Shown: positions 146 through 49,446, counted from the whole stretch's first letter. The stretch is 62,740 bases of DNA, filler included, from Bonamia ostreae (GCA_040357525.1; 47 parts of 47 records of this genome joined end to end with filler, not necessarily neighbours in it); one strand, 5' to 3'. Numbers and translations are program-made. The notes: generated by a model not told the origin, from the letters alone.

Positions 146-1148
146 ATGAGTCTAGAAGAAAACGAGGTTTTTACCAACCAACGTCAGCAAAACGACACCG
201 AAGCTCCTCTCGGGGCAAAGCTTTCCAAAGACGACCAGATCGAGACCAACTGGGGCGAGATCTCGGAGCAGCTGGGCGTCCCCGAAATAGTCGAGCGCTT
301 CGAAGACATGGAAATCAACCCGAAAATCCTGCGCGGGCTGTTCACCTACGGCTTCGAGGAGCCTTCGTCCATCCAGCAGCGCGGCGTGATCGCCGTCAAC
401 ACCGGGCGCCACGTGATCGCGCAGGCGCAGAGCGGGACCGGCAAAACCGCCACCTTCGTGCTGGGCACTCTCAACCGCATCGACTTGGACCTGCCCAAGT
501 GCCAGGTCCTGGTGCTGGCGCCTACTCGCGAACTCGCCAACCAGATCTACGACGTCTACAACGCGATCGGCTACCACCTCAAAGCAGATGGCTTCGAAGT
601 GCTCGCCTGCGTGGGCGGCACCTCCGTGGACGAGGACCAGCGCGCGCTGCGCAAAGGCGTCCACATCGTAGTCGGCACGCCCGGGCGCGTGCGCCATCTC
701 GCGGAGAACGGTGATCTGCAGCTGAAACACATCCGCTCCTTCGTCCTCGACGAAGCGTTTCCAAATTCATCTTAGGGACGAGATGTTGTCGCGCGGGTTC
801 CAGGAGCAGATCTACGAGATCCTGGACGGGATCTCCAGCGACTACCAAGTCTGTCTGTTCTCGGCGACGCTCGAGAAGGAGACGCTCGACATCGCTGAGA
901 AGTTTATGAAGGACCCGATCATGATCCTCGTCAAGAAGGAGCAGGTGACGTTGGAAGGAATCACGCAGTTCTACATCTCGCTGAACGAGGAGTGGAAGTA
1001 CGACATTCTGTGCGACATCTACGACAGCGTCAAGATCAACCAGTGCATCATCTACTGCAACACCAAACGCACCGTAGAGTGGCTCGCGAAGCAGATGCTG
1101 AAAGACGATCACAGCGTTTCCATGATGCACGGCGACATGGAGGACCAC
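146..1148 (+). CDS. EIF4A: Eukaryotic translation initiation factor 4A (DEAD-box helicase), 3'-truncated; exons 146-756 and 776-1148
   Basis: Motifs GFEEPSSIQQ, AQSGTGKT, PTRELA, TPGR, SAT, LEGITQFY and HGDM. Removing 757-775 restores DEADEMLSRGF. The next donor GT is at 1149, followed by AT-rich intron. Confidence 0.95.
757..775 (+). other. 19-nt GT-AG spliceosomal intron (GTTTCCAAATTCATCTTAG) inside the DEAD motif
   Basis: GAC GAA GC|intron|G GAC GAG ATG gives D-E-A-D-E-M. It is an AT-rich insert in a GC-rich exon and explains the frame break. Confidence 0.93.
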
Positions 1149-1246
1149 GTACATTTTTAATTTTTAAAACATTTTTAATTTGACGACGAAAATATTAATT
1201 TTTAAATATTTTTGGCGATCTTAAAATTTTGTTTGGGAATGGTGGA

Positions 1247-1346
1247 NNNNNNNNNNNNNNNNNNNNNNNNNNNNNNNNNNNNNNNNNNNNTTAATTAATT
1301 AANNNNNNNNNNNNNNNNNNNNNNNNNNNNNNNNNNNNNNNNNNNN
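1247..1346. other. Artificial contig-joining spacer (44 N + TTAATTAATTAA + 44 N); first of 46 identical spacers
   Basis: The same 100-nt block recurs about every 1.33-1.35 kb. The core 12-mer carries stop codons in all six frames. Flanking contigs shrink steadily from 1246 to about 1228 bp. Confidence 0.98.
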
Positions 1347-1348
1347 AA

Positions 1349-1663
1349 TTCAACTTCAGAGGGAGAGATCAAAGCAAACTGGTCGGAGACTTGTCCGGGG
1401 GAGAAAAGAACCGAGTTGGATTGGCGAAAGTACTTTTGAATAACTGCAACGTGTTATTATTGGACGAGCCGTCGAACGATTTGGACATCATCACTTTAAC
1501 CGCGCTTGAGAGCTCCCTGAAAAGTTTTGGCGGGTGCGTTGTTTGCATATCGCACGACCGCTATTTTCTGAACAAAATATGTACACATATCATCGAGGTG
1601 AGAAGCGATGGTCGGGTAAGACTTTTTAACGGAAACTACGATTTTTACAAAAAAAATAAATAA
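1349..1663 (+). CDS. ABC-F ATPase, EttA/ChvD-like, C-terminal fragment
   Basis: FNFRGRDQSKLVGDLSGGEKNR...LLLDEPSNDLD...ISHDRYFL...FNGNY contains the signature, Walker B and H-loop. The FNFxGxDQxK segment is typical of EttA. Confidence 0.8.
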   Translation, partial: FNFRGRDQSKLVGDLSGGEKNRVGLAKVLLNNCNVLLLDEPSNDLDIITLTALESSLKSFGGCVVCISHDRYFLNKICTHIIEVRSDGRVRLFNGNYDFYKKNK

Positions 1664-2224
1664 TATTTTTCGTTGTGGGAATATAGAGGGCGAATCCATC
1701 CTCGACGTAGCCCCTGATACGTTCTGTAAATTTACAGCAATTTTGGAAGAGGAAATATTATAATTTATAACACCATCAAATTTCAGCAATTTTTTGGCAC
1801 TCAATAAAGTTCGCGACCAAAATTTTTAAAAGGACCTTACAGGAAACTAATAAACCGGACTGAGAATAAAAGGAATCAACTCTAATAGATACGAAAACTC
1901 TAAAAAAGGGAATCAACGAAAATTCTAAAAAAATCGGAACTATGATAGATCCATTTGTTAGAAGAAAAACTTTTAAAAAAAGTTATCAGTAGAAAAAATG
2001 AGTCAAAAATTGGAATGCTTAAAATGCATTTTGTAAGGTCTAGAGAAAAATTGCAAAAAAGATCAGAAATGGTTCAATAATGCATTCGCTGTGATTTAAA
2101 GAAATATGAAAAAGAGTTTCTAAAAAGATTAAATTGCAAAAAATGACATAAACGATATTTGGCTAGATACAGCCAAAAGATAGGTTCACCTAAATATTTG
2201 AAAAAAAAGATAAAATTTGGACAA

Positions 2225-2460
2225 TAGTTATTAAGCTAAAGCAACGGTTATGCATTCAATCAATCAATTTTTTTTGATTGTTAGGTGAATATATTCCCCA
2301 TGAATTTATGAATGCACAAGTTATTCAGCTAAGTCATATTGGCGTCCGTTTGAATAAATATCTCTGGAAATGTATCCCCAAATATATTGATGGGATTGCA
2401 GTACGGAGATAGTGCCGGCCATTCCAAAAGTTCCACTTTGTGTTTAGCAAAAAATGACAA
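2225..2460 (-). mobile_element. Degenerate Tc1/mariner (Tc3-like) transposase, C-terminal relic
   Basis: Minus strand reads KVELLEWPALSPYCNPI/(frameshift)YIWGYISRDIYSNGRQY...KKLID*MHNRCFSLI. This matches WPxxSPDLNPIENxW and LIxSMxxRC, with a frameshift and stops. Confidence 0.75.
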
Positions 2461-4520
2461 AGTTACATCTAATTTGTAGGTAAATCCAACAAATTAGATG
2501 TAAGTTAGTGTACATAAATTTTATATAAATTAGTTGTAATAATGTATATCAACTAAAAAGATAAGAATTACAACAACTCTATTTATAAACAANNNNNNNN
2601 NNNNNNNNNNNNNNNNNNNNNNNNNNNNNNNNNNNNTTAATTAATTAANNNNNNNNNNNNNNNNNNNNNNNNNNNNNNNNNNNNNNNNNNNNCAAGCCGA
2701 AAATCTAAATCTAAATTCTGAATTCTGTATCTTCAATTTGGGCATGCTTCAGGTGGTATTTGCAAAATGTTCAAAACCGTGATAGCATTTCAAAACTTGA
2801 AAATGCAGGTAGACAGTAAGTATTACACAAGCTCAAAATACCTCTGCAAACATTTAACAAGAAAAATGCCACTTACACAAAATCTAATCATTTTATTAGA
2901 TTACATTTACCACTGAGATGAGCTTCTTTCAACGATTGAAACGATAGTGAAAATTAAATGATGAGGGAGGATGGGGAATTCGCCAATTTGAATGTGGCAA
3001 CCTTTCAGATATTGTTTGAGAAAACCATACTTCTTCAAAGGCACATCTCGTAAAACCCGTGTATTTTAAAACAAAATGCAATATTAACGTGTTAAATAAA
3101 CATGAGATTCAATGCGGTTCTTTTTATAAACGAATCCTACAATTTATTGAAAACTAAAGTTTACGGAACTGTAATTTACGATGAAAACCAAATTCTAAAA
3201 AATCTTCTTACAACACTCTTTGCCCAATCTCTACAACATTGTGATACCTTTGTATAATATCTTCACAACGTCTGCATAATACCTGTAATACAACTGTATC
3301 TATTCAATCTTTTTACAAGCTCTGTGCAATGATCGGTTAATCTTTATACAACTTCTGTCCATTGTGTAAACATTTTTGCACAATCTCTTGGTATTATATA
3401 AAATCTATTCCAACGATAACTCTTGTCCTTTGAATTCAGCTCATGTAAGGCCTCATCTTAACGAAATCTACACCTTGTATTTCCTTTAAAACTGTACCTC
3501 TACTATCGAATCACAACGTTTTTAATGCAAACAACCTACATTTGTATGTGTGTAGACATACATTTTTAAGCGAAATCCACTTGTTCTTATTCTTTCAACT
3601 ATATTTCAGCTTTACAAGTCATTACTAGTGATAAACATATATTTAAAAATAAGCACCTGAAGACATTAATTTTAAAATGATCCGAAATTCATAGAATGTT
3701 TAGAGACTCATTTTCATAACTAAATCTCTCAAAGATTATACCAGACATACATGTAGTACTAAGTATGCAAGGGGAAATATTGTCAGAATGGATATACAGT
3801 ATGGGAGGCATAATGAAATAAATGTACAAATGTATGTTATTCACCTTTCTGTTTAGTTAAAAGAGAAATATGAAATAGTAACAATAACGAAGAGTGATCT
3901 ATCTCATCAAAGATGAAGATAACGAACAATGTTCAATNNNNNNNNNNNNNNNNNNNNNNNNNNNNNNNNNNNNNNNNNNNNTTAATTAATTAANNNNNNN
4001 NNNNNNNNNNNNNNNNNNNNNNNNNNNNNNNNNNNNNAACACTCTAACCTCTAGTTCTATCTTAATGACAAGACGTGTATACAGTTGTAGTTTTAAATAT
4101 TACTCACACTGTAGTAAACTCAGTCTGCAATCGATATAAACAATGCTCTATATCAGGTCTCGATGTGCTCTTGCTAAGAATTCGCCGAAGGATTTCACAA
4201 AGAGTGAACGTCCAATCTTCTTTCTCTTTCACACCCGACTGTACAGATGAAATCAATTGTAAATCATGATTTATACAAAATCATTACATTAATTAACTGA
4301 TGATAAATATTATTGGTGTAATAGTGTGTGCCAGAAATAGAACAGCAGGTTACATTTAGCTGTCTTTGCATCCCACAATCGCGCTACTTACAAGTTTGTC
4401 AGTCGTTCTCCCAAGTGTATCAAAGAAATTTGGAGACTCTGCAAGAACCTGCATCAAATAAACTATAGTTCAAAATTTGTACATATTTCATTTCATCTAT
4501 TATTCCATGAATCAATTTCT

Positions 4521-4596
4521 AGAGAGANNNNNNNNNNGAGAGAGAGAGAGAGCGAGAGAGAGCGACAGACAGAGAGAGAGAGACAGACAGAAAGAG
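4521..4596. repeat. (GA)n/(GACA)n microsatellite with an internal N gap
   Basis: Visible directly in the sequence. Confidence 0.9.
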
Positions 4597-4613
4597 ACTG
4601 ATATGTATATTAC

Positions 4614-4673
4614 TTGATACACGCTATTTCTATAGCACGTTAGTCCTAAATTTGGCAATCCTGATTCTCTCGC
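4614..4673 (-). CDS. 60-nt exon encoding a ubiquitin-specific protease Cys box (animal-type gene)
   Basis: cag|ARESGLPNLGLTCYRNSVYQ|gt matches the USP consensus GLxNLGNTCYxNSxxQ, with canonical splice sites. Confidence 0.7.
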
Positions 4674-7972: not shown

Positions 7973-8072
7973 NNNNNNNNNNNNNNNNNNNNNNNNNNNN
8001 NNNNNNNNNNNNNNNNTTAATTAATTAANNNNNNNNNNNNNNNNNNNNNNNNNNNNNNNNNNNNNNNNNNNN

Positions 8073-8592
8073 GTTTTTTGGAAGGATTGGCCGCGCTGAA
8101 TCCGCAGAACGTGTTCATGGTCTTCTCTTGCAAAAATCATCCTGAGGATGAGGTTCCAAAAGAAGAGAAATGTTTTGGGGCAAGAAATGGAGTGGTAAAG
8201 ATGGATATTCCAACTAATGAGAAGTTAATGTCGGGGCGACTGAATTACTCATAAATACTTAGAGCCTACACTTTTCGAGGCGCCGGATTACTAAAAATGA
8301 CAAATTGGAGTCTTTGGGTTCATCAAGTCTTGAAAAATGATTTTCAATCTAATAAAATTTGCAAAAATCGGTTAAATAAAATTTTCCAAAATCGATTAAA
8401 TGAACAAAACGTCATTCAAAAAACTGCTAATTTACATGAGAACAAATAAATTTCTTTTACCTGAAGGAATGGATTATAAACCTCTTCGTTTTCCAAATCG
8501 CTACAGATCTGTTAAACAAATCGATCTTGCGTATTAACTCTCCCGCAGAAAATCCAAGAATAAGAGATCTTAATTTTTCGACATCGATTTGA
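8073..8592 (+). CDS. Hypothetical multi-exon protist protein, 3' fragment
   Basis: Three coding-like segments can be joined through GT-AG introns (about 8225-8263 and 8327-8467). No family was recognised. Confidence 0.4.
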
Positions 8593-8617: not shown

Positions 8618-9316
8618 TTATACGATGATCTCAAATACTTCTTCTTCGTTAGAATTTGTATTCGCGGATGTTTTATTCTTTGAATCTGTGAGCACTACAG
8701 TTTGAGTGGAAATTCCCGAAGATTTATTTCTGTTTTTTGGTGATCTGAAGCAAAGGATTCTTCGGAAAAAAGAGATCGTCAAGAAGAAAACAAGCAGTAC
8801 AACAACAATAGGCACAATGATCACAACATATAATGTTGGGGCTGGTTGGCAACAAGGTTGATGCACGAATCCGCGAAAAATGCAATCTTCCTCCCCATAT
8901 CTTGTCCCTAACCTGCTTTGGTAGAACATATCGCAGTAGAAGACGCATGGTCCATTCATTTTACAGCCACTCAAAATTTTTCCGTGATCTATCGATTCAT
9001 ATAGGCACGCTTGGGTGATTTTATACGTCATAATAGTCGTCACAGACGGAACCCCGTCATCAGAGCAGCTCACCCAAAGGGACCGCATATATTTCTTGTT
9101 CTGTTCAATAAAAAAGTTTTTGCCAGCCACTGCCAGGCATCTCCGGAAAAACCTTTGTTTTTCATCGTCACAATTTTCAAAAACAATTGATTTTGCAGTA
9201 GTCACAGATGGGTATGTACAACCTAAAATTAACTTGAAAACTTTTAACAAAGCTAATTTTCAACGAAGTTGGATCAAAGGTAGGAGAACATGGTAACAAT
9301 TTCGAATCAATTCTTG
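8618..9316 (-). CDS. Cys-rich single-pass membrane protein (5'-truncated), with a predicted 19-nt intron at 9223-9241
   Basis: Cys-rich ectodomain, then hydrophobic LYVVIIVPIVVVLLVFFLTISFF, a basic stop-transfer segment and a short tail. Removing GTTTTCAAGTTAATTTTAG extends the open frame to the contig end. Confidence 0.65.
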
Positions 9317-14183: not shown

Positions 14184-14594
14184 TTAATTTGATTTTGTCA
14201 TGTTTGGATATTTTCCTGATCTAATTTGTTTTCTTCTTTTGGCGGCCTTTTTTAAGGCTCTTCGTTTTTTGGCAATCGCTATTTTGCTTTTTTCTTTGTT
14301 GACGAAAAAGTCCACCAAATCTGCGAGCTTATTTCTCGCTATTTCGCGATTCTTCTGTAACAATCGAGTTTTCTGGCACTAAATTTTATAATAATTTACT
14401 CTCACTGTGATTCCAGTCGGATTGTGCTTTAATATTACACAATTCGACTGTGAATCGACTTTTCTTCCGCCATTTCCGCTTCCTCTTTGGAATATTTCGG
14501 ATACTTCTTCTTCGTATATTTTAAAGCTTTGTCCAAAGCTTCGTTTTAAATTTAAGTGAATGGTTTTATTTTTTATCATTCTTATTGAGATCAT
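14184..14594 (-). CDS. Mitochondrial class-I release factor homologue (C12orf65/MTRFR-like); exons 14594-14400 and 14378-14184, 21-nt intron
   Basis: EEEVSEIFQRGSGNGGRKVDSQSNCVILKHNPTGITVR|CQKTRLLQKNREIARNKL plus a basic tail. The intron is GTAAATTATTATAAAATTTAG. Confidence 0.85.
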
Positions 14595-14953: not shown

Positions 14954-16032
14954 TTATTGTAATTGAACTACTTTTCTTTCTTCACTAAACTTTTTATTTT
15001 TAGCATTGCTTTCCTCTCTCTTTCTTTTGTTAGAAATTCCATTTAAGTCATTTTCCAATTCTTCCAACAATTCGTCGTCGTTTTCATAATTTGGCAATTT
15101 TGTAATGTCTTATTAATTAAAAAATAGTACTCTAAAAAATATAAATTGGTCTTAACAAAAATGATTTCAACCTTCCGACAAAACTTCACTGACATTTTTA
15201 GATTCTTCCAAAATATTATTTAAATTAAATAAATTTTCATCGATTTTTTTGAGATCGATATTTGAATTTAAATTTGATAAAATTTCCGTTCCCACTTTTA
15301 AGCCATCAAAAGTCTAAAATTAATTTAAATTTGACAATTAACGACAAAAATGTTTTTAAAATCGCCTATTTTTAAATTTTAATAAATTTTTGTAAATTTG
15401 GTCAATTTTAATATCGAAAACCAGCACATTGACATATAAAGAATTGATTTCTAACAAAATCATATCAAGATTATTCAAATTCTTTATCCGATTATCTAAT
15501 AAAAATTCTAAATTTTTCTTAATTTTTAGCATCGCTATTGCTATGTTCCTTTTCCCTTCTTTAGCTAATTTTTTGATTATTTCTGATTTTCTTTTTTAAT
15601 ACAAAAATTTTTCGCTAAAATCTGTTTAGATTTAATCGCAAAATTTTTTTAATCGCTAATTTTGATTTAATCGCAAAATTTTTTTTAATCGCAAAATTAT
15701 AACTTTTCAATTTCAGTTAAAAGATGTTTAAGTTGCATTTTTAAAGTTTTTTTGGCAAATTTTAGTTTAGCTATTCTTTCGTCCAATTTTGAAAAACTTT
15801 CGTTTGAGTCGCCGGTCAAAACTTTAAAAAACTATTTCAATTTTAGCAAATTTTGGATAAAAATAATTTTGCTTTAAATTTGCCAAAACATTAAATTTTT
15901 GATTATTTGTTTTATCGATTAAAGCAATTTTTTTGTGTTTGTTGAGATAAAGAAGAATGAGTTTCAGATCGTCGGGATGAATTTCCTTTTGATTTATTTG
16001 AGCTTTTTCGTTGATATTTATAACAATTCCGT
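14954..16032 (-). CDS. ESCRT-III Snf7-family protein, CHMP7-like (multi-exon, 5'-truncated)
   Basis: Exons read DLKLILLYLNK..., DERIAKLKFAKKTLKMQL, KKLAKEGKRNIAIAMLKIKKNLE...NLDMILLEI, FDGLKVGTEIL and NDDELLEELE. This is a Snf7 core preceded by extra N-terminal sequence. Confidence 0.65.
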
Positions 16033-17549
16033 NNNNNNNNNNNNNNNNNNNNNNNNNNNNNNNNNNNNNNNNNNNNTTAATTAATTAANNNNNNNNNNNN
16101 NNNNNNNNNNNNNNNNNNNNNNNNNNNNNNNNAGGTATGGTGATGATATCTGATGCCATTGTAGTGATATCGGACTGTGATGAGATAATTTTAGGCCAGT
16201 GATGAAATTTGATGAAATTGTAATGAAATTTTAGAACTTTGATGAAATTAGATTGTGGTAAAACGTAATTGCTTTCTGTAGAACATCTCTGCTCTTACAC
16301 GTTTTAATTCCTTTTTGAAATGATGATTCCTCCGGGGTTTTTGGTTATCTTGCTGAGGTTCGACAAACATTCCATTGTCCCAGCTATTATTTGAATCATA
16401 ACCGCCTTGATGAAGTGAAACAAATGCACAGATAAAATAATATTTGTTCTTTCTTTACAAAATCGTATATACTTGCTGAATATTGTCATTTAATTCGGAT
16501 ATTTTCAGTTTCATATACATTTGTTTTTACAATTGCATGTATTGTTGGAAAATGTATTTCTACAAATATGCATTCCTATTTCTACTGAATCTCTCGTCGG
16601 AAAACATATCGCTTTATAGTAATACATTTTTGGAAAACACATTTCTACAAATATGTCTACATATTTACACTAGATCTACAGAATACAGCTTTGTAGGACA
16701 TCACACCGTTTGTCAATGGATCCTAGAAACGTCTTTCGTGTTTTCCAATTATCCATTTCTTTTGTCCTTCTCGTTCACGAGATTAAAAGTTTTTGAGTCT
16801 TTTGGAATCATATTTTCGAACACAAAGAATTCAGATAGCATATACATGTAATTCTATAATCCTTGTGATTTTTTGCGTGGATATCACTCCCTCAAATCGT
16901 TTATTTTGTGATTCATTGTAGCGGAGATATATTGAGGATATAATGTAAGAAAAAGTTGAAACTAACGAAAAGTGATCAATCTCATAATCAAATAAATAAT
17001 ACATGATTAGAAAAGGATAAACATGGATTCCTGGAAACAACAATGGTGACATAAAGTGGCTAGTATGCAAGCATCCCTTCTTTGCATATTGCATTTGTTA
17101 TAAGACATTCATCTTGATCAGATAAACCTAGTATTCCGTAGTCAACATCAGTATGTAAAATAACCCAACAATTGGTATGAAACACGTTTTGTGATGCTAC
17201 ATTTGGAGAAATGCATCGAAAACCCCTCTAAACAATCAAGTAAATATGCTAGTCATTACTTCCTATTGCATATTACTATTTTGAGTCTACAACGCACCTA
17301 ATGATATACAAGATAAAATATATACAATCGCAAAGTATTTAAGGCGAATACAGTTTATAATTATTGACAGATGCANNNNNNNNNNNNNNNNNNNNNNNNN
17401 NNNNNNNNNNNNNNNNNNNTTAATTAATTAANNNNNNNNNNNNNNNNNNNNNNNNNNNNNNNNNNNNNNNNNNNNAAAAACAAAATTTAAAAACAAAAAT
17501 TGTTAAAAACAAAAATTGTCAAAAACAAAAATTGTCAAAAACAAAAATA

Positions 17550-17997
17550 CAAAAAGGAAAAACGAAAAGATGAACGTTCGCCCAGAAGATCATCTCGTTA
17601 CTCGAGATCCCGCTCTTTATCACGATCGCGCTACTCCAAATCGAGTTCTTCCAAATCTCGCAATCGCCGCAGAAACAGATCACCTCGCCGCAGAAGAGAT
17701 GACCGCTACGAAGATGAGAATTACGACATTTACAAACCTCGTACACGGCCTCCTCCGACGCGAGCGTCGAGAGCTTTCACACAAGCGCAGGAAGGATTGG
17801 TGTGGGATGGATTCCAATGGACGCAGCCATCGGGATTGTCGGTGAAGCAGAAGTCTGAAAACTTAGCGACGAAGATAATGGACGTGATGGGCACCGACGA
17901 CCAGAAGAGGAACCCGAATGCGCAGCAGGCGATGGTGCAACAAGCGCATCAACAAGCGGCGTTGTTGAGAGAACATCTTAACAAATTAAAAAGATAA
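17550..17997 (+). CDS. RS-domain (SR-like) protein fragment with a WDGFQW motif
   Basis: RSRSRSLSRSR...RNRSPRRRR followed by LVWDGFQW and a Gln-rich C-terminus. Confidence 0.6.
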
Positions 17998-18475: not shown

Positions 18476-18717
18476 CTATCCTTGCAACAACCTGTCGATT
18501 ACAACCGAAACATTGCCATTCGTCTGTTTCAACAACGCGATATTCCTTTCCTTGTCCGTGAAGCCCATGTTCTTTAACTGATCCAATTCGCTTTCATATC
18601 TCTTCTCCCAATCTATTTCTTCGTTCGTCGGATTGTTAATTGTCGCTCCCGTTGGCGCCGTGTTCATTCTTGGATTTGTTGAAAGATTTGACGAAGCCAT
18701 TTGTTGTGCTGGCGGTC
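18476..18717 (-). CDS. Ubiquilin/Dsk2-like protein, C-terminal UBA domain
   Basis: EKRYESELDQLKNMGFTDKERNIALLKQTNGNVSVVIDRLL is a ubiquilin-type UBA domain. Confidence 0.85.
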
Positions 18718-25520: not shown

Positions 25521-26213
25521 CTACAGCTTCTTAGACTTTTTGGATTTCTGCGATTTGCTGAGCAACGCCTTGTGAATGTGCGGGATGACCCCTCCTCCAG
25601 CTATCGTCGCCTTAATGAGATGGTCGAGCTCTTCATCTCCTCTTATCGCCAACTGCAAATGCCGTGGAGTTATTCTCTTCACCTTCAAATCCTTCGACGC
25701 ATTCCCCGCCAACTCCAACACTTCGGCTGTCAAATATTCCAAAATGGCTGCACAATACACTGAAGCGTTTCCTCCCACCTTTATGTCGCCCATCGCTCTT
25801 CTCTTCAAATTTCTGTGGATTCTTCCTACTGGGAACTTTTTGTCGAAACAATTGGCAAAACAGAAAATTAGATTTTTGCGAATCGATTACTTTTGCACTA
25901 AACTAAAAACTTGCAAACCGGCTCTCATCGAACGCGAAATCGGCGTCTTCTTTCCCTTTCCTTTTCCTCCTTTCGCTTTTCCTTTCCCCTTCCCGGATTT
26001 TCCTTTTCCTCCTGGAACGACCTTCCCAACGCCCGTCGGCAACGAAACTTTGCCTCCGGGCACTACAGATGGCGCGGGCGTTTTGTCAGCAGTTGATTTT
26101 GCGGGCGTTTTGAGACCGGCGCTCGGCGCGGGCATTTTGACGCTCGTTTGAACGGGCATTTTGCCCGCGACAGTAGAAACGGGTATTCCTATTTTGCCTC
26201 CTCCTTTGTCCAT
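25521..26213 (-). CDS. H2A.Z: Histone variant H2A.Z with a long N-terminal tail; exons 26213-25911 and 25835-25521 (75-nt intron)
   Basis: [17 protein letters not shown]...[61 protein letters not shown] is diagnostic of H2A.Z. Confidence 0.96.
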
Positions 26214-26854
26214 GGTTAATTTAAAGTTTAGTCTGTTTAAGCTGTTATTTAGCTATTGGATATATAAAAGGAGTCTAAAAATGGTTTGAATTGTTTATTT
26301 TTTTATTAAAAACGATTATTTTATAAAAAGTAGTTGGGATGCCTAATATTTAAGTTTTTTCTATTTTTAACAGATTTTTTTATTTTTAGCAGATTTTTTT
26401 CTATTTTTATCAAATTTTGTCATTTTTTTATTTTTCTCGTCAAATTAAATTTATATAATTAAATAATCAGATATATTTTTATGAACTGAATTGAAACTTA
26501 ATATATAAAATTTATTATTATATTAATTCATAACAATTTGAACCTAAACCGATTCACGATATTTCATAAACCCGATTCATAAACAATTGCGAAATACCCT
26601 AACCCTAAACCGATTCATAACAATTTAAACCCGAAATTTGTTATAATAAAAATTTAAACCCGAAAATCCAAACCAGCAGTTTTTCGTTGATCAATAAAAA
26701 AAACTGGCGAAGCGGCAATTTTAACCGGTTTATAAATTAAGAAAAATTGAATAANNNNNNNNNNNNNNNNNNNNNNNNNNNNNNNNNNNNNNNNNNNNTT
26801 AATTAATTAANNNNNNNNNNNNNNNNNNNNNNNNNNNNNNNNNNNNNNNNNNNN

Positions 26855-32203: not shown

Positions 32204-32640
32204 GATTGTTACCGATAAAAACATCCGTAATAGTTGATTCGGGATGGCCCGGCGTAAAACTTTCGATACTTCGAAATTCTCGTAGATCCTCCAGAGATAC
32301 CTTGAAACCGAAGAGATGCAACAGAGAATACAACAAAGCACTCGAATGTCCATTGGACAACACAAATCGATCTCTGTCGACCCATTTCGAATCGACATTT
32401 GATATTTTGAGAAATTTGGAGAATAGCACATGCGCGGTCGGAGCCATTCCGAGCGCCGATCCTTTAAAATTAAAATTTCGGTTTCAAAATTTAATCGATC
32501 TTTTTTACTGACAACAACGAACCGAAATGACCAGAACCGGCATTGCAAATTATATCGGCGCACAAACTCCGAAGAGAATGGGTGCATTTTTCGTCCAAAT
32601 CGTCTTTTGCCGAGTAAACAGGTTTCGTGTTTTTAGACAT
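32204..32640 (-). CDS. TKT: Transketolase, N-terminal part (intron about 32462-32522)
   Basis: [25 protein letters not shown]...[11 protein letters not shown]...LYSLLHL...[13 protein letters not shown]. Confidence 0.93.
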
Positions 32641-33167: not shown

Positions 33168-33439
33168 ATGACAGAAGAAGATATAGAATACTCTACTAAG
33201 TACACAGACAACAAATATGAATACAGGTGATTTGCGATTTTTAAACAAAAAAGACACGTTATTCTTCCAAAAGAAATGGCCAAAAACATTGCCAAAGACA
33301 AATTGTTGTCAGAAGAAGAATGGAGAGGAATTGGAGTACAGCAAAGCAGAGGATGGGTTAATTACATGCGGCACAGTCCAGAACCTCATATTTTATTATT
33401 TCGAAGACCGTTAGGAACCGATCCTGAAACAGGTCTTGT
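33168..33439 (+). CDS. CKS1: Cyclin-dependent kinase regulatory subunit Cks1; 27-nt intron at 33227-33253; 3'-truncated
   Basis: [21 protein letters not shown]...[36 protein letters not shown]. Confidence 0.96.
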
Positions 33440-33655: not shown

Positions 33656-34319
33656 CCAACCGGCGTCGACGAAAGAGACCAACAACTACAAGAAATAACA
33701 CTCGCCATCGACGGATTGTTAAAAAGAGTAGAAGATTTGGCGGAAGATGGATTAGTCGACGAATCCAGAGAGTTGCTGGCTCAGATCGACTAACTGAACG
33801 CCGAAAAAAGAAAACTTTTGTCTGACGTCACTTCTCTCCGCGTCGAAGCCGAAACTCGCGACAGAAAACTGACCGTCTGCGAAATCTGCGGGGCTTTTCT
33901 GGTCGGAGATGACATGTCTGCTCGACTCGAAAGCCACATCGAAGGCAGACAGCACAACGGATTTATCATGGTGCGCCAAAAAATAGATGAACTTGAGGTA
34001 CTCGAAAAAGCCAAATTTTGAAAAAAAATCCAAAAATAAAAAAATTTTAAAATATCAAATTTCAGAAAATTTTGTCGTGTTTAAAAAGCCAAATTTCCCA
34101 ATAAAAAGTAAAAAAAATTAGAATATGAAATTAGAAGAAGTGAAATCAGTATCGGTGACGCCGCCGCCATCAAGCTCGAGGTCAAAATCAGTGGAAAGAC
34201 GGCGGAGAAGAGATCGATCTCGAAGCCGCAATAGAAGACGTTCTTCGAGGCACTCTTCGAAACATTCTTCGCGGCACCGTCGTTCCAGGAGAAGTCGGAG
34301 TCGCCATAGAAGACGATGA
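33656..34319 (+). CDS. LUC7: U1 snRNP-associated splicing factor LUC7-like (3' part), with an in-frame TAA at 33791-33793; intron 33998-34121
   Basis: EDLAEDGLVDES...RKLTVCEICGAFL...RLESHIEGRQHNGFIMVRQKIDEL (second zinc finger), followed by an RS tail. Confidence 0.88.
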
Positions 34320-40217: not shown

Positions 40218-41422
40218 ATAATGTTTCCATTTATTTTCGACATCGGACCGCGCTTCGAGAACAAAACTTTCCAATTCGTTTTTCAGTTCTTCGATTCGAT
40301 CATATTTTTTGTCAAAGTCGCTCATCTCTTTTTCTTTCAACATTGCTTCTTCAACAAATTTTAAAGGGACATATCCTTCATTTGTAACAAAGTTTATTTT
40401 TGTTTTTTTCTCTTTCTTCACTTTTTTGTTTTCTTTGTTGTCGTCGTCATTCAAATCTTTTTTGTTCTCTTTGAGATCTTTGTTTTCTTTTTCTTTGTTG
40501 TCAACAGCGATTTCTTCGTGCAGGAAAACGCTTCTAATGGCGATGAGACCGTCGAATGTCAAAGCGATTTTTACGTTGATGTAATTGTCTGTGACGTTTT
40601 TTGTTGTTGTCTTTGGCGGGTTTATTGTGCAGTTTGAAATAAATGTGTTTGTTCCCGGTGGCAGTTCTTCGGGATTGGCGTAGCTTTTTTTTGTCGATTT
40701 TTGCGAATTGTTTTGAAAACGATTTTTTTTAATTTTGTCGATTTTTGTGAATTGTTTTGAAAACGGTTTTTTTTAAATTTTGTTGATTTTTTGTGAAACG
40801 CCAAAAAACTTGAAAACGACTTGGAAAGGATCAGTTTTTCGGAAAGTGAGCAGTTTGGCTGAAGGAATGGCACTGAAACTCTTAAAAAGAACTAATCGCT
40901 TTTCAAGTTCAAAATTGCCTTTTTCGTCAATATTTCCCCACGCGATTTCTATTGAATAAGGAAATGTGTCGATCACTTTATATTCTCTTGCTCTAAACAT
41001 CGGAGAATTTATTGCACACTTTTTATTTTTTTTAATTTTAGTTCATTTTGACTAATTTTTTTTTAAATTTAAGCTCGTTCGACTAATTTTTTGCAGAACT
41101 TAAAAACTTTGTAAGTGCTTCCAATCGCAATTGATTCGTCTCCGTCACAAGTTTCGGAAATTTCTCGCCCTAAAAATCTTTTTAGTGTTGATTTGACCAA
41201 TGGAATTCGAGAACTTCCTCCAATAATTTCCAGTGAATGAAGTTGATTTTTTTCGATATTCGCCATTTTCAAAACTTAAAATTTGCAAATTTTAAAAAAT
41301 GGTATTTTAAAATATTAAATTTTATTAAAACGTTCTTCAGAAAAATATTCTATTTCGTCCATTTTGCTTTTAATAGAATTTTCGTATTCGTTTTTGGAAA
41401 TGTTTATCGACAAGTCAATTTC
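40218..41422 (-). CDS. HSP110/Sse1-type Hsp70 family chaperone, internal multi-exon fragment
   Basis: LEIIGGSSRIPLVK, DESIAIG, CAINSPMFRAREYKVIDTFPYSI, IPSAKLLTF and EKEMSDFD...KNELESFVLEAR. Confidence 0.9.
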
Positions 41423-44316
41423 CTTTTTTTTGCGATTTAGTTAATTTTTAANNNNNNNNNNNNNNNNNNNNNNNNNNNNNNNNNNNNNNNNNNNNTTAAT
41501 TAATTAANNNNNNNNNNNNNNNNNNNNNNNNNNNNNNNNNNNNNNNNNNNNCTTTGCAACCAGAGTATCAGCCTTTGTATGAACTTCTCTAATAAAACAG
41601 TAAATTGATTAGTTATTTCATTGTGTGTCCATTTCGGATGGTTTCTGTGGTATGTTCTAATTTGCTTATTTACAACTGCGAAGCCATAACTAAACTGGAA
41701 TATTTTTTTGATGTTAAACAAGACTACAGTTCAATATTAAATAATGTTCTTGTTTATCTAATACAACAAGTATTTGAAACCTTTCACCCAGGCATACGAT
41801 GGAGATCGATAATGGACAATTTACTAATTACTAAGAGGGAGTTAAACAAGATAAAAATACGCGCACCGGTGGCGGTTTATCGAAATAAGTAACACTTCTG
41901 AAATAGACTTCTGTGATAAAAACACTGTGGCAAATGGCAATAATTAATTTGACGAGAAATTTATTTGTTGGAGAAATGTTCCGAGAAAATGTGGCGTTAT
42001 AACGAAATCGGCGCCACAATGAGCGGCGATGAGTCCAGAGTTACCTATAGACGATGACCTAGACGAATCGGAGTGCAGATAATGTCGATTTGTTGGTGTG
42101 CATTCAAAGACTGTGTGATAAGTCATTCAATAATCTTTTTGTGCGAACATAAACTTCAGAATACAAATAGAAACAGACTTCTATCTTTTTAATATCCTGA
42201 GGTTCAAACCAAACCACCAACTCGTAGTCGACTGATAAGGTCTGCAGTAAATATAGTGATCGTCCTATTTAATGCAAATCAGTGGCACGTTAACACTTAA
42301 AAACCAGACATAGTTTGAACGGATATCAAATAGATGAGGACATCTATCTAAATTGTGTTAATCAGTGTCAGTGTGGATTTGTGGATGACCATTCAAAGGT
42401 CATGTATGACGAACAAAAGGCAAATAAAAATACGACAATCTTTATCGGCTTGATATCTTTATCACTTGAGTCAAGCTGATTTTCTGTATCATAATGATAG
42501 CACTTATCGTTAGGCGAACCCAGCACAGACAGAATGGGGATTAAAAAAAACTGTCGGATAGTATATTTTACCTCTACAGGTAAGGCATTAAACCTTTAAA
42601 TGGCAGACACTTATGTTTGATAATAATATAAGTTATCCACATGAGAGAGGAGCAAATCCCTGTATACCCACACCTGCAAATATTTTTTTGTATCTGAGAT
42701 TAAAAAATGGTTGGAAAGGATACTCTTTGATTTTAAAATCCTTTCCTAGCTTTGTCTCAATAAATCATTGACTGCTCCCTAAAACNNNNNNNNNNNNNNN
42801 NNNNNNNNNNNNNNNNNNNNNNNNNNNNNTTAATTAATTAANNNNNNNNNNNNNNNNNNNNNNNNNNNNNNNNNNNNNNNNNNNNTATATATATCCTTTC
42901 CGTTATGCAGATTAAAAGATTGATCAAAATCCTTGATGGTGAGTTGGATAGTATTCTTCAAAAAGACATGTCTCCAATGGAAACTGCTTTACTTATTCTA
43001 CTCTACCGCAAGCATACAGAAGAAATTGCTCGAAATGCATCCAACAGTCATTGGAAATGGGAAGAGGGTTCTTTAAAAAAGGAATACCAAAAAAGAAGAG
43101 AAAATATAATGACTAAAAGAAGCATTGCAAATACTGCTATTCAGAAGACGACAGATGAATTTATGAAAGAAATTGAAAAGGTATGTATATTGATTTTTAT
43201 TCATTGAGACATTTTGACTACAGGAAAAAGCGATGGATCCATCATAATGTACTTGAAAAATAGATAACATTTCAAACACCTTACTTGTAGACAAAATGGA
43301 GAAGTCATAGTAAAATATGACCACATATCACCCAGCTTCGAAACATCGCCCACCATCGCGGAAAAGACATAATCATGATCTAGTTCGTAATGTTTCTTTA
43401 CATCTGTTTCATTTGTTTCGGATCTATCAATTTCGTTGTTGTGAAGCAAGCATTATTTCTTGATTCTCATTCTATGCACATGAAGATTTTGTGGTCGACT
43501 TCATGAATTGCAACCAACTTAAAAAATCACATGCATGGGTGTACAATTACTTTCTCAGTACATTTAAATATCCATTCTGAAAATGGAGATTCTATACGTG
43601 TTACACAGTACTTCCGTTCTGATGGCGACTTACATAAGCTATGGTTCTGGAAATTAGATTTTAAACGCGGTTCGCAGTTCACTATTTGAATTTCAATATA
43701 GTGAACTTCATTCTTGAACACTGTTCGCAATTCACATCTTCTATGCATGAAATAGGAAAATAGACTAACACTTTGAGGGTAAGTTACTTAAGGGCATCTT
43801 ATACCACTCTGAAGGTACCAGCTTTTGGTTTGAAGATCCGCCTCTCCAACATTTATTCATAATGTATTACACTTCGTTTATAAACAAAGGTTTTGGTTTT
43901 TTTTAAATCCAAAAAAATCACAAAAAGGTGATGGTACCATGTCTTGTTTTTTATCCACCCATTCCAATTATATTCGGATTTAGAAACATTGTAGATCCCT
44001 ACCAAGGGGACTGAAATTTGGAAGGTTGGGATCTAGTTGTCAAATACCAATCCATAAAATTATGGTGCTGGTACAATAATCTTATTATGTGGAACCATTC
44101 CTCTTAATTTTTATTCACNNNNNNNNNNNNNNNNNNNNNNNNNNNNNNNNNNNNNNNNNNNNTTAATTAATTAANNNNNNNNNNNNNNNNNNNNNNNNNN
44201 NNNNNNNNNNNNNNNNNNACTCCGATTTTGCCCAGAAAACTAAAGACATTTTAAAATTATAAAAAGTTAAAATTTAGAAATTTGAAATTTAGAAATAATA
44301 TTTTGAAAGACTGAAA

Positions 44317-44996
44317 ATGGGTTCCCTTTTATCCAACATATTTAAATATTTTCAATCCGACAAAGATGTCCGTGTTCTTATTTTGGGCTTAGACAATGCC
44401 GGAAAAACAACAGTTTACACTTTGAAAAAATTAGATATTATATAAACTGAAAACACCAGAAGCCAGCACGAAGATACATGAACCGACGATTGGTTTCAAT
44501 GTAGAAACGTTGTCTTACAAAAGCATAAGTTTCCGCGTTTGGGATTTGGGAGGGCAAACGAACATTCGTCCTTATTGGAAGTTTTAAATTCCATAGCAAG
44601 ATGTTATTTCCAAGACGCGATTGCTGTTATTTTCGTTGTAGATTCGACCGACGTCGAAAGATTGGATTTGGCTCGACAAGAGCTTCTTTCGGTTGTGTCG
44701 GAAGAGGAAATGGCGAACATTCATCTTTTGGTTTTCGCGAATAAACAAGATATGGAGACTTCCATTTCGGAAGAAAAGGTTCATTTTAAGTATTTGTTTG
44801 GAATTAAAGATTTGATTTTGTTGAAAATTTTTCTGCTTTTAAAAATTTATTTAAAAATTTCTGTTTTTTTAAGGTGGCGGAAGGTTTAGGATTGTCGAAA
44901 TTGAAAAACGACAAATGCAAAATATTTAAAACTTCGGCTACAAAAGGTGAAGGGTTGAAAGAAGGATTTGATTGGCTGATTAAGCAGATAAAATAG
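44317..44996 (+). CDS. ARL1: ADP-ribosylation factor-like GTPase (Arl1-like), complete; introns 44413-44434 (22 nt), 44581-44600 (20 nt) and 44779-44873 (95 nt)
   Basis: MG...[17 protein letters not shown]...PTIGFNVE...[17 protein letters not shown]...FANKQD...[14 protein letters not shown]. Confidence 0.92.
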
Positions 44997-45846
44997 CCGT
45001 GATTAATTTTTAATAAATGGAATGCGTTTTCAAAAATAAAACAACTTTGCAGATAAATTAACATTAAATTAAACAACTTTATAAATGAAATTTAAGAAAT
45101 CTTGTTTACAATAAAAAAGAATTATAAAACTTTTGAACATTCAATATTAAATCATTTTTATACAATAAATATTTTGTCAAAAGCACATTTCCAATTCGTT
45201 GTTTTTATTAAAAATGAAATAGAATAATTTTATTAAATATTTTTTCATCAAATAGTTATTAAAATAGTTCAAATTTCGAAACAAAAATTTCCAAATTTCA
45301 AATGTCTGTATTTTTACAAACAAAAAAACAGCTTAAGACTTCGCAATACAAACCAAACCTCAAAGCCGTTTTTTGCCAAAAACAGTTTAAATATTATATC
45401 AAAGCTGCAAAACAAAAACACTAAATTTAGTATGTTTGATGCCCTATTTTCNNNNNNNNNNNNNNNNNNNNNNNNNNNNNNNNNNNNNNNNNNNNTTAAT
45501 TAATTAANNNNNNNNNNNNNNNNNNNNNNNNNNNNNNNNNNNNNNNNNNNNAAGAGGGAGAGCTCCGCTCTCCTGGCTCTTCGCGCCGTGAGCGGGCTTA
45601 GCACTCTATGATAACAATGTCATTCAGACACGGTCAAAATATCAATTGATGTAATGTTGAAATTTAATAATGACTTCAATTTACATAGGTATGTTCTAAT
45701 AGAAAAAATCCAAACAGCATATCATAAAGTTAAAAGGACCATAAGTATTTATAATCCCTGAAAAAGTTTGGAGAAAAGCTTGTAAATGTACCTTGCCATC
45801 CGATACAGTACTGAAATATTCTTACCCAGGTGATATGCTGGCTACT

Positions 45847-45990
45847 ATGGAATCTGGTGTGTGTATCGTGCTTTTTCTCTACCTTGGACTGACGCATGGA
45901 TACTGGTTTGAGGAGGGATACCATCATCATTACACTTACTCGTCCACCACTAACACCCTAGGAACGTATAATGTTACAACTGTTGTAAAG
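45847..45990 (+). CDS. First exon of a secreted protein, possibly of the large lipid-transfer (vitellogenin/apolipophorin/MTP) family (animal)
   Basis: Signal peptide, then FEEGYHHHYTYSS, then a GT donor at 45991. Confidence 0.4.
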
Positions 45991-47102
45991 GTACACTGTA
46001 TTGCCTACATATATGTAATTTTTTAAAATTTGAAACTGAAGTTAAATTAGGCTTGGATTTCTCGAGAAACAAATCTCAAACTCAAGTTTAATCTTCTATT
46101 TGATTTATCAAAATTTCGACTTAAGTTCTGTTCGAGAAATTTAGGCCTGGTGTTTTTCTTGTTGGTACATCACGCATACAAAAGATTCCTTTCTCCCTGA
46201 TAGTATTTGTAATGTTAAATGACACTTGGTTGTCAGTCATCACCAAGATACATAATTCATGCAGTGATCGATACGTCAGTCTTGTCTAACTGCTATTTTT
46301 CGGTTTTGACTACTTCGCTATAGCCGTCGCTATACGTGCCCTCGGATCCTCAGTATTGGCATCACAACTGTCTTCTGATGCACTGTGAACATCTTGGTGA
46401 CAGTTGCTCTAAATAAACCCGTCGATGTTGATGAGCTATTGTACGAAAGCTCATCGAGCAAACTTTCGTAGATAAGAAATAAAAATTTTCGCGAAACTTT
46501 AGGAATAAAGGCGTAACTTCCACGAATAAATGCCTGACTATCGTGATATAACGTTAAATGTTTGTAAATATACGTGGTAATTCGCGTTATAATGCGAAAG
46601 TTAAGAGTTCTTAAACGAAACTTTTGTGTTATAAAGCGTAATTTTTTTTTATAAACGCCAAATGTAGGTACATGTATATACTCTTATATATCGATTACAT
46701 GCGCTCAATATTGAAGTAGCATGAAATATGTTCATTAAAATGAAGAAGAATTAAGAAAATCTTGTGCAGTTGTCCTTTGAACANNNNNNNNNNNNNNNNN
46801 NNNNNNNNNNNNNNNNNNNNNNNNNNNTTAATTAATTAANNNNNNNNNNNNNNNNNNNNNNNNNNNNNNNNNNNNNNNNNNNNTATGAAATAAAATATTG
46901 TTCGAATATGAAATAAAATGTTCGAATTTTGCTTAAATATTCACTTGTATTCTTCGCAAGTTTGGTCATATCAGGTCTGATTGCCACATTACAATATCGA
47001 TATCAGTGAGATAATCTTAAGATTGTTTAATCGGCAAAATTTTATCTTTTTACAACAACAAAATTTAGAAGAAACGCAGAAAAAATTTAAGTCATTTAGT
47101 GA

Positions 47103-47983
47103 TCAATAATACAAGAACAAATCTTTGATAGTTAACTCTTCCTCCCCATTATAAATCTTCCCGAGAACCAAAACAGAGATGAACAACAGAATCAAATGAG
47201 CGTTCTCGACATGGCTCATCATGGTCACCAGCAGATACGCTTCAATCGGCATGAGCAAAAGCAACTTGGCGCTATCGTCAAAGTTATTTGCCAACACTGT
47301 TATCACAGAAGCAATCGAAAAAATGTGCGCGAACCTGATGCAGTAGTTCAACACTTCGCTCTTGATACATTTCTCCACCTTGTTTGCTACGGCAGACAAA
47401 TATTTGAGAATAAAGAGCGCCATCAACAAAACGGCTTAAAAATAGAATTGAAAACATGAAAATATCACGAAGAATTTGTAATGCAGATCTTTGCTCAAAA
47501 CACACTTTATTATTTCCACGGGCAAACTTAAAACGAGAAGGGAAGTCATCATCGCGATTTTGACAGGTTTCTCTTTAGGCGAATTCTAAAAATGGCTAAT
47601 GGAACCTGCTTGGGATGGAACGCAAAGTTGATCAACACAATCAAAGCAGGACTAAGAGCGTAGAAGCACAAGATGACTTTTCGAAGCGTTTCGTCTATCG
47701 CCGTGTGTTCGAACGCCACGTAAAAAACGGGGAGAGAAGTTATGACGAAGCAGTTGGTCGCGATTTGCAGGAAGAGGAAGTTGTTGTTTTCAAGGTTTCC
47801 TGCTTTGTGGCCTTTGGTGTAGATCCCGTAGATGTAGATTAGAAAGTAAGCGGTGAGGATTAAGATGGAGAGAAAGGTAACAGGAGGAGTAACGAGGATT
47901 AGAGGGCCCATTGCGACAAGATTTATCATAAAAATGGAAAAGATCGTAAATTCCCAATGGTCCGTTAGAAAATAAGTGAGCAT
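47103..47983 (-). CDS. Multi-pass membrane protein (about 279 aa) assembled across two tiny introns, 47586-47605 (20 nt) and 47435-47455 (21 nt)
   Basis: Removing GTTCCATTAGCCATTTTTAG and GTTTTCAATTCTATTTTTAAG fuses two ORFs into one stop-free hydrophobic frame (378+130+332 nt). Confidence 0.7.
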
Positions 47984-48228
47984 TTGGTTTGTTATTATAT
48001 TATTAGAAATTAATAAATTCGTTTGCCAGTTTATTAAAGCTCTTTATTGCTATTTGTTATATCGGATTATGTTAGTATTTATTGCATCTCGACTAAATTT
48101 TGTGGTAACAAAGATNNNNNNNNNNNNNNNNNNNNNNNNNNNNNNNNNNNNNNNNNNNNTTAATTAATTAANNNNNNNNNNNNNNNNNNNNNNNNNNNNN
48201 NNNNNNNNNNNNNNNTTCTAAACCAAAA

Positions 48229-49446
48229 TTAAAATTTAAACAGAAACTTGGCTTCAGAAGAAAATCCGTAATCGTTGTGGACTTCTTCTTCACACGGCGG
48301 TTTATCGAAGTCCACGTACGACCTCCTCTTGAAACGAACTCCGCGACGGCTATTAAATCGAGAGCCGCGACGTCCATTGAACCCATTTCTCGAATTTCTG
48401 TGTCGAGAATTCTCGTTTCTGGAATATCGAGACGATGTGTCGCCGGGTATTAAAGATTCGACCTTTTCAAGTTGGAAATGATCTTTGTCGTTCATGAAAT
48501 TTTGGAAAAAATCGTTTTGCTCTTCCTTCGAAAGGAAAGTTTTAGCAGCTTCGGCGTGTCGTTTGGTGATGTGTTGGTTGAGGAACTTTTGCAAAACAAA
48601 CATTTTCTTGCACAATTTACATTGCCATCTCACGTCGCTTTTTCTTTCGGTGTTTTCTTCCAAAAAAGTGTTCTTTTTTCTAATTTTGTAAATTTATTTT
48701 GAGCCGATTTTGCAATTTTTTGTAATTTTGAAAAATTGTTTGTTTTTACAAAACTGATTTAAAAATCTATTTTAAATCGCTTTATTAAAAATCGCAAAAT
48801 TAAAATTTTCTGCAATTTGGAAAATCGCTTTAAAACAAAAAAATGGACCTTTCAACCCATTCGGCAATTCCGAGAGAATGGTCGTTTTGCAAAATTTGGT
48901 CTATTTTTTTGTCCAAATCTTCTCGCCATTTTTTATAATCTTCGTCTGCGTCGTTTTCAGAATTGTCGAATCGACGTCTTTTCGAAAAATCTGATTGATT
49001 TATTATTGTTTCGCGCGGATGTCTTTTGGCGCATCTGCTCATTAGCCTTTCCTCCGATTGGTAATCTGTCCCGCAGTAATAACAAAAAAAGTGAACGTTT
49101 TGGAGATAAAAAATGAGTAAATTCAGTTTTGCAATTTTCTTTTATTAATTTTTAGTCATTTTTTTGTCAATTTTTAAATTGAGAAGAATCGCTAATTTGC
49201 GAATTAAAGACAACCGTATCACAATTCGACAATATTTCTTCGGTAAAGTTTTTTTCGATTTGTTTGCGTTTATTAAGGACTGTTATAAGCTTAAATATTA
49301 TTATTTTTTACTTTTTTGGCTTGTTCAATGTCGAAACCTACTCTGTTTTCGACGAGAGAATAAAAATTTGCCGGTTTTATTGATTTTGACGATTTTTTCT
49401 TCGGTAAAATATGCAAATAAAGCGGAGTATATTCTTCAGAATATTC
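48229..49446 (-). CDS. SRRT: ARS2/SERRATE-like RNA effector, C-terminal multi-exon fragment; 22-nt intron at 49290-49311
   Basis: FDIEQAKK|LITVLNKR, FCYYCGTDY...RC, the zinc finger WQCKLCKKMF...HITKRH, FFQNFMND and the C-terminal YVDFDKP. Confidence 0.75.

Follow-up and report, generated by a model that had tools for sequence, protein, structure and literature searches.

Probable spliceosomal introns of 19–27 nucleotides beside longer introns in the genes of an AT-rich eukaryote

The window analysed here, a stretch of 62,740 bases of eukaryotic DNA, raises the question of whether the very short inserts bounded by GT and AG that interrupt several of its protein-coding genes are removed by the spliceosome, and how introns of about 20 nucleotides (nt) would then coexist with the longer ones found in the same genes. 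A first-pass annotation had listed nine such inserts of 19–27 nt, and very probably they are genuine nuclear introns of the U2 type (GT-AG), near the smallest length that their host can splice. The window consists of 47 unlinked pieces (1,227–1,246 base pairs (bp)) ordered by decreasing length, and the joiners between them (N44-TTAATTAATTAA-N44) hold a stop in all six frames, so that features apparently crossing from one piece into the next are artefacts of concatenation. The inserts recur in unrelated genes, as had been claimed, and these genes sit on separate 1.2-kilobase (kb) contigs and not at one locus.

All nine segments start with GT and end with AG on the coding strand, exactly at the coordinates and with the lengths (19, 21, 27, 22, 20, 22, 19, 20 and 21 nt) that had been claimed for them (Table 1); eight measure 19–22 nt and one 27 nt. 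The flanking exons were translated separately, each was scored against Pfam and the profile coordinates were compared over the junction. Exact removal restores conserved protein at six of the nine inserts, as judged by Pfam or by homologue alignment, and the Pfam positions are continuous over five of the junctions (eIF4A, the RF-1-domain gene, CKS and, twice, the Arf/Arl GTPase gene). The proposal that removal restores a protein or a reading frame therefore stands for six inserts anchored by homology, whereas the other three do join open frames, a criterion that proved to be no better than chance (see below).

In eIF4A the DEAD profile is matched at positions 2–125, the split codon takes position 126 and the match resumes at 127–164; with the script-spliced protein as query, a single BLASTP alignment spans this junction in 116 of the 120 homologues listed. 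In the RF-1-domain gene, a homologue of C12orf65/MTRFR, profile positions 5–46 (the last exon residue being 47) are followed by 48–108, an alignment with the PDB reaches the last residue of the first exon, and the junction ...TVR/CQKTR agrees with the C12orf65 chains. This mitochondrial C12orf65/MTRFR-like protein (14400–14594, minus strand) carries GGR in place of the catalytic GGQ of its solved homologues. The downstream exon of CKS begins at profile position 16 of 68, and the upstream exon alone, too short to score, gave zero Pfam matches. The four exons of the Arf/Arl gene occupy positions 4–29, 30–75, a split codon, 77–134 and 137–174 of the Arf profile, the last of them from the second residue of the exon.

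The ARS2 homologues were recovered by an HMMER search with the C-terminal exon, amid many zinc-finger matches, and in the resulting MAFFT alignment the junction at 49290–49311 runs without a gap against all nine of them; the spliced model aligns with the best homologue over residues 9–304. A word-indexed homologue search with the same C-terminal exon gave no matches, and the two small ARS2 exons alone showed no Pfam match and, in PDB searches, only chance matches (E ~1). Three of the tiny introns have a length divisible by three and each of these contains an in-frame stop, read from the sequence; their retention would truncate the protein, an in-frame TAG coming next in the RF-1-domain gene and a TGA in CKS. 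The dinucleotides GT and AG each have a frequency of ~0.05 in the window (product 0.0022), which would place the presence of both at all six homology-fixed inserts far below chance.

Transcript evidence was sought by RNA mapping of the Arf/Arl contig with two runs, X1, whose RNA status was guessed ('RNA?') and in which 0.27 of the sampled words matched, and X2, a declared RNA-Seq run labelled mollusc metagenome (0.05 of the sampled words). X1 record 3 (344 nt) spans 44555–45013 with exactly 20 letters absent at 44581 and with 95 nt (44779–44873) skipped, so that the check by RNA suggested in the first-pass annotation came out in favour of the insert at 44581–44600 on this contig. The same 95-nt joint, with GT..AG ends, is seen in X2 record 6 (235 nt, zero mismatches), and X1 records 1 and 2 end at 44580, the final base of the exon. 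Both introns that are covered are absent from mature RNA, 44581–44600 in X1 and 44779–44873 in X1 and X2; one tiny (20 nt) and one long (95 nt) intron are removed from the same transcript. The stretch 44219–44472, which includes the intron at 44413–44434, has no cover by X1 or X2. Four differing positions are listed between X1 and the window, and X1 therefore comes from another strain or individual. A further contig, X1 record 4 (471 nt, seven mismatches, seven gaps), fits only the last Arf/Arl exon (44874–45013, plus strand) and parts from the window exactly at the acceptor; its source is either a paralogue or a related organism whose intron or junction occupies this position.

The guessed RNA status of X1 also bears on another explanation, namely that the segments are removed from the DNA itself, in the manner of ciliate internal eliminated sequences (IES) or of the chromatin elimination reported for dicyemid somatic cells (PMC6543705), the 'spliced' X1 contig then being somatic DNA. 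The 95-nt intron is, however, likewise missing from the declared RNA-Seq run X2, and the mapped X1 contigs consist of exons only and end at exon ends. All 19 introns delimited in the window have GT..AG and not TA..TA ends, the TA boundaries expected of a ciliate IES being found at none of them. Removal at the DNA level is thus very unlikely.

Still less credible is that the inserts are errors of assembly or sequencing, or mark frameshifted pseudogenes, and that their GT..AG ends are coincidental. The assembly is indeed highly fragmented, with contigs of 1.2 kb, and the LUC7-like gene does hold an in-frame TAA; against this, every one of the nine inserts has at its ends a pair of dinucleotides whose joint frequency is ~0.002, all of them fall within 19–27 nt, and their exact removal restores conserved residues at six junctions. 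In addition, the transcript of an independent strain lacks one insert exactly, and in a 68%-identical relative the open reading frame (ORF) likewise starts directly after the DEAD-box junction. Retention of the inserts in the mRNA, with the ribosome bypassing them or shifting frame over them, has in its favour only that most junctions lack RNA data, and is a negligible possibility, since the segment is physically absent at the sole junction with transcript data and the nine tiny sequences have no common slippery or take-off/landing motif.

The spliceosomal introns of the window include a second size class, as the first-pass annotation had noted, although its range is 57–169 nt and not the ~39–125 nt given there. 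This class comprises ten delimited introns, all of them GT..AG, of which seven are anchored by homology or RNA and three were placed by eye only. Sorted by length, the 19 delimited introns measure 19, 19, 20, 20, 21, 21, 22, 22, 27, 57, 61, 61, 63, 75, 76, 89, 95, 108 and 169 nt, none falling within 28–56 nt in this small sample found via conserved genes, and the tiny and long classes are mixed inside three genes. The former lower bound of 39 nt came from a segment at 33772–33810 that was rejected as an intron: the LUC7 profile is colinear through its in-frame TAA, so that coding sequence is likelier. This TAA (33791–33793) falls exactly at profile position 160, and elsewhere in the window TAA is a normal stop; possible readings of it in the LUC7-like gene are a nonsense allele, an error of the assembly and stop-codon readthrough.

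Table 1. Introns, candidate introns and the LUC7-like gene delimited in the window, with the evidence for each (a slash marks the exon junction)
Feature	Gene	Coordinates	Strand	Length (nt)	Phase	Evidence
Tiny intron	eIF4A, DEAD box	757..775	+	19	2	GT..AG; Pfam DEAD
Tiny intron	C12orf65/MTRFR-like RF-1-domain gene	14379..14399	-	21	0	Pfam RF-1, PDB
Tiny intron	CKS	33227..33253	+	27	2	GT..AG; Pfam CKS, downstream exon
Tiny intron	Arf/Arl GTPase, after P-loop	44413..44434	+	22	0	Arf profile 29 then 30
Tiny intron	Arf/Arl	44581..44600	+	20	2	Arf profile 75, split codon, 77; RNA contig
Tiny intron	ARS2	49290..49311	-	22	0	...GFDIEQAKK/LITVLNKRKQI; 9-homologue alignment
Candidate tiny intron		9223..9241	-	19		GT..AG joins 24 + 200 open codons; open frame only
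Candidate tiny intron	Orphan membrane-protein gene	47435..47455	-	21		Joins 43 + 109 open codons; in-frame TAA inside
Candidate tiny intron	Same orphan membrane-protein gene	47586..47605	-	20		Joins 146 + 43–49 open codons
Long intron	Arf/Arl	44779..44873	+	95	0	RNA (X1, X2); Arf profile 134 then 136/137
Long intron	AGC-type protein kinase	61152..61212	-	61	1	...CGTAEYL/APEMIEG; Pkinase 164 then 165
Long intron	H2A.Z-like histone	25836..25910	-	75	0	AGLQ/FPVGR; downstream exon Histone and Histone_H2A_C
Long intron	Transketolase	32462..32522	-	61	1	Downstream exon Transketolase_N 25–104
Long intron	ARS2	49139..49214	-	76 (73 with donor 3 nt downstream)	0	...ILSNCDT/KIAKLNLLIFYLQNVHF
Long intron	ARS2/SRRT-like	48680..48848	-	169	2	...GIAEWVE-R-KKNTFLEEN; 9-homologue alignment continues across
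Long intron	Hsp110/Sse1-like	41019..41107	-	89	0	...IAIGSTYK/CAINSPMFRA; Sse1 alignment, HSP70 profile
Probable long intron	Hsp110-like	41275..41331	-	57		By eye; sole frame-joining GT..AG pair, ...EYFSEE-L-LKMANIE; weak
Probable long intron	Snf7 family	15314..15421	-	108		By eye; ...SLYVNVL/TFDGLKVG; upstream exon Snf7 29–80; weak
Probable long intron	Same Snf7-family gene	15109..15171	-	63		Three-frame translation by eye; ...SEVLSE-D-ITKLPNYEN; weak
Second intron, start only	eIF4A	1150..1246	+	at least 97		...HGDMEDH then GT and AT-rich sequence; 3' end beyond contig
Gene	LUC7-like (U1 small nuclear ribonucleoprotein-associated)	33662..34018	+			Pfam LUC7 121–159 upstream and 161–229 downstream of TAA

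Exact removal of six of the long introns brings back conserved protein, as judged by Pfam, PDB or homologue alignment. In the Hsp110-like gene the exon that follows 41019–41107 aligns to Sse1 379–449 from its first residue, and the upstream exon corresponds to HSP70 316–369; this placement displaced an intron of 107 nt (40993–41099) called by a gene model. The ARS2 intron at 49139–49214 is followed by the conserved block L(D/N)LLIxYLRxVH, seen in nine homologues. Pfam gave no match for the exon upstream of 41275–41331, for the upstream exon (39 amino acids (aa)) of transketolase or for that of the H2A.Z-like histone (25911–26252, minus strand), which encodes 114 residues rich in lysine, glycine and proline, and in the Snf7-family gene the Snf7 profile is matched by exon 1 only.

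The tiny and long introns have the same ends, with GT mostly followed by T at the 5' site and with AAG or TAG, never CAG, at the 3' site. In the 15 introns that were first tabulated, position +3 is T in 11, A in two, G in one and C in one, and position -3 is A in nine and T in six, with no C; the four introns added afterwards have T at +3 and end with AAG (three) or TAG (one). The G+C content of the 15 is 22%, as compared with ~40% for exons in the AT-rich genes, and a loose A-containing motif was read by eye 6–10 nt before the AG. Three of the nine tiny introns, including those of eIF4A and the candidate at 9223–9241, begin with GTTTYCAA. This motif has 28 matches in the window (15.1 +/- 3.45 expected; 0 of 100 shuffles reach 28), an excess due in part to a tandem repeat at 40700–40830, and its occurrences revealed no convincing new intron. 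The repeat, on the minus strand downstream of the Sse1-like exon, consists of a unit of ~44 nt starting GTTTTCAAAACAATTC that is present at least twice.

Since both classes share the weak GT(T), the AT-rich body and the (A/T)AG ends, one U2-type spliceosome would remove them all. These weak ends would suffice for splicing when combined with the AT-rich body and a branch A close by, and the branch point would be an adenosine ~6–10 nt before the 3' AG, in surroundings that loosely resemble TTNA(T/C). The tiny class would reflect a deletion pressure that meets a hard floor close to 19 nt. Such an erosion of introns to a steric minimum has been argued for mikrocytids (PMC10245619). The first-pass annotation had instead proposed that length is the main feature by which the spliceosome recognises introns. 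This proposal is not supported, and erosion is preferred to recognition by length, because introns of 20 and 95 nt with the same ends leave one transcript and three genes mix the two classes.

Several results weigh against the interpretation of the inserts as spliceosomal introns, or narrow it. Transcripts support one of the nine tiny introns, and they come from a run whose RNA label is guessed. Three of the nine (9223–9241, 47435–47455 and 47586–47605) have open frames as their support; they resemble the verified tiny introns in length and first bases, the ORF with 9223–9241 has no Pfam family, and the orphan membrane-protein gene that holds the other two has no family or homologue. In a frame-bridging control over the whole window (30-codon flanks, 15–35 nt) 115 of 5144 GT..AG pairs (22.4 per 1000) bridged open frames and 15 control dinucleotide pairs gave 15.7–22.0 per 1000, with no enrichment, so that open-frame restoration alone is no better than chance as a criterion for an intron; with 50-codon flanks the count of bridging GT..AG pairs was swamped by AT-rich control dinucleotides. 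A dynamic-programming gene model based on codon usage, with the contigs held out of training, ranked GT-AG 22nd of 256 pairs on the contig of the orphan membrane-protein gene; on the verified Arf contig it ranked GT-AG 129th of 256 and misplaced the Arf introns. The model has no power to separate GT-AG from decoys and counts neither way. The Rfam scan of the 62-kb window gave zero families, and thus no small nuclear RNA there. The gap between 27 and 57 nt is based on 19 introns reached by a biased route, through conserved genes, and the branch point, the lariat and the lower length limit are inferred from the same 19 sequences.

Ultra-short GT-AG introns are known from several lineages, and the window can be compared with each of them. 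The list offered in the first-pass annotation (chlorarachniophyte nucleomorphs, some ciliates, reduced parasites) was incomplete, omitting dicyemids, myxobolid myxozoans and mikrocytids (PMC2222250, PMC6543705, PMC13644364, PMC4986447, PMC10245619). In size band and size mix the myxobolids (Thelohanellus kitauei, Myxobolus, Henneguya) are the best match to the introns of the window. Their median intron is 22–27 bp, their splice-site motifs are reduced and the putative branch point lies in A residues that precede the AG (PMC13644364), and in Thelohanellus kitauei most introns are 20–25 bp, with a long tail (mean 240 bp) and a G+C content of ~29% per scaffold (PMC4986447). Unlike the GTT of the window, the 5' site of myxobolids and of Dicyema japonicum is described in the main text as 'GTa' (PMC13644364). 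The window has no cnidarian marker gene, and X2, the one declared RNA-Seq run that contains a transcript of the window, is labelled mollusc metagenome; molluscs are not the usual hosts of myxozoans.

Dicyemids resemble the window in being parasites of cephalopod molluscs, in their highly divergent proteins and in their mixture of tiny and longer introns. Dicyema introns measure 26.2 +/- 1.9 nt in seven genes (PMC2222250), and for dicyemids a median of 27 bp, two in three introns being shorter than 30 bp (PMC6543705), and a mean of 38 bp (PMC6736024) have been reported. A length of 26 +/- 2 nt is not what is seen here, eight of the nine tiny introns, a small sample selected by the first-pass annotation, being 19–22 nt. 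Chlorarachniophyte nucleomorphs (18–21 nt), heterotrichs (15–16 nt) and Paramecium (20–35 nt) (via PMC2222250 and PMC10245619) resemble the window in having GT-AG introns whose lengths cluster narrowly around an apparent minimum for splicing. In nucleomorphs and heterotrichs, however, essentially all introns are tiny, whereas about half of the delimited introns here are 57–169 nt; in place of the single band, 2–4 nt wide, of a uniformly tiny system, the window has nine introns at 19–27 nt and ten at 57–169 nt.

The mikrocytids are Ascetosporea (Rhizaria), AT-rich and fast-evolving parasites of marine invertebrates, including oysters, and in this they resemble the window. In Mikrocytos mackini and Paramikrocytos canceri each of the 224 introns measures 16 or 17 nt, their sequence is conserved, the spliceosome is very reduced and there is no mitochondrial genome (PMC10245619). 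The conserved sequence finds a parallel in the GTTTYCAA start of three of the nine tiny introns. Unlike mikrocytids, the window has introns of 19–27 and 57–169 nt and encodes both a LUC7 protein and a mitochondrial ribosome-rescue factor, and a mikrocytid host is ruled out by the uniform 16–17 nt of mikrocytid introns. The genomes of a haplosporidian and of paramyxids are described as those of AT-rich shellfish parasites with 'canonical introns', the haplosporidian keeping a mitochondrial genome (PMC11069148). No report of 19–27-nt introns in haplosporidians or paramyxids was found in a literature search confined to the main texts of accessible papers, and the word intron is absent from the Bonamia transcriptome paper.

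The proteins of the host are very divergent, as in a fast-evolving AT-rich eukaryote, and eIF4A shows at most 60% identity to any of the 120 homologues listed. Tree building placed the spliced eIF4A, with a support of 100/99, in the clade P0009–P0014, one member of which is labelled amphipod transcriptome, and apart from the sequences of animals, fungi and plants; the length of its branch, 1.84, carries a warning of long-branch artefact. Searches with eIF4A for a spliced, transcript-derived host protein returned none, the best matches being the window's own fragment and the 68%-identical relative, P0122, which comes from a public assembly. The ORF of this relative also begins at a methionine just after the DEAD-box junction (window 777–1148, plus strand), and it loses similarity at the same residue as the donor of the second eIF4A intron; this hints that both eIF4A intron positions may be common to the window and the relative. 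Tentatively, the host could be an ascetosporean parasite of molluscs, of haplosporidian or paramyxid grade, with introns intermediate toward the mikrocytid extreme; a dicyemid is judged clearly less likely and a myxobolid slightly less likely still, with other lineages making up the remainder. This doubtful placement draws on the mollusc-labelled RNA run X2, whose error-free contig is the sole clue to habitat, the G+C content of ~31% and the gene for a mitochondrial translation factor, both of which agree with published features of haplosporidians (PMC11069148), the misfit in length with dicyemids, the splice sites other than 'GTa' and the position of eIF4A outside the animals, on its long branch.

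The genetic code is standard. Natural C-termini use TAA (the RF-1-domain gene, ARS2 and an ABC-F gene), TAG (Arf and the UBA protein) and TGA, CAA and CAG together make up 167 of 4825 codons, and ORFs of 415 and 387 codons are free of TAA and TAG. Therefore, a code of the Paramecium/Tetrahymena type, ciliate code 6 with TAA and TAG read as glutamine, is ruled out.

The G+C content of the window is ~31%, and that of the single contigs ranges from 0.21 to 0.42 with the sole exception of contig 1 (1–1246), which carries eIF4A. This contig has 52% G+C, as against 21–42% in the other 46, and the AT-richness of the remaining contigs is found in its intron and flanks as well; the composition suggests either that this gene has a strong codon bias of its own or that the contig belongs to a second organism whose introns are of the same type. 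The splicing-related genes in the window are the LUC7-like gene, ARS2 and an Arg/Ser-rich ORF resembling an SR protein (17491–17994, plus strand), which shares its contig with a ubiquilin-like UBA/CUE C-terminus (18479–18715, minus strand). A tRNA scan of the window found zero genes. An open frame of 400 codons (50909–52108, minus strand) fills a contig of 21% G+C and resembles the C-terminal part of the reverse transcriptase of a non-long-terminal-repeat retrotransposon. It had zero Pfam matches at E 0.01, and the Atlas clusters nearest to it carry RVT_1 on 20–25% of their members, with arthropod and mollusc taxa; this reverse transcriptase-like ORF could come from a host animal.

Introns of the GT-AG type and of ultra-short length are already familiar, and what may be new is the organism and the even mix with ordinary introns; a dicyemid or myxobolid host would make the finding already published. 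The claim that gene predictors miss such introns holds: two of these genes are present in the public protein collection only as post-intron fragments, P0121 (122 aa) and P0241 (124 aa). Gene callers split genes of this kind, and therefore gene counts, mean coding-sequence lengths and lists of 'missing' conserved genes in such parasites are probably distorted as long as gene models do not allow for tiny introns. If the host is an ascetosporean, the published gene models of shellfish pathogens, described only as having 'canonical introns' (PMC11069148), would be cut short at every tiny intron that had been overlooked. In that case, a class of 19–22 nt with a partly conserved GTTTYCAA start and an unusual GTT...AAG signature would stand beside introns of 57–169 nt and a fuller spliceosome (LUC7). 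Introns of ~20 nt probe the minimum sequence that a spliceosome needs, and the presence of introns of 19–22 nt and 60–170 nt in the same genes allows the two to be compared under one machinery, which is impossible in genomes with tiny introns only.

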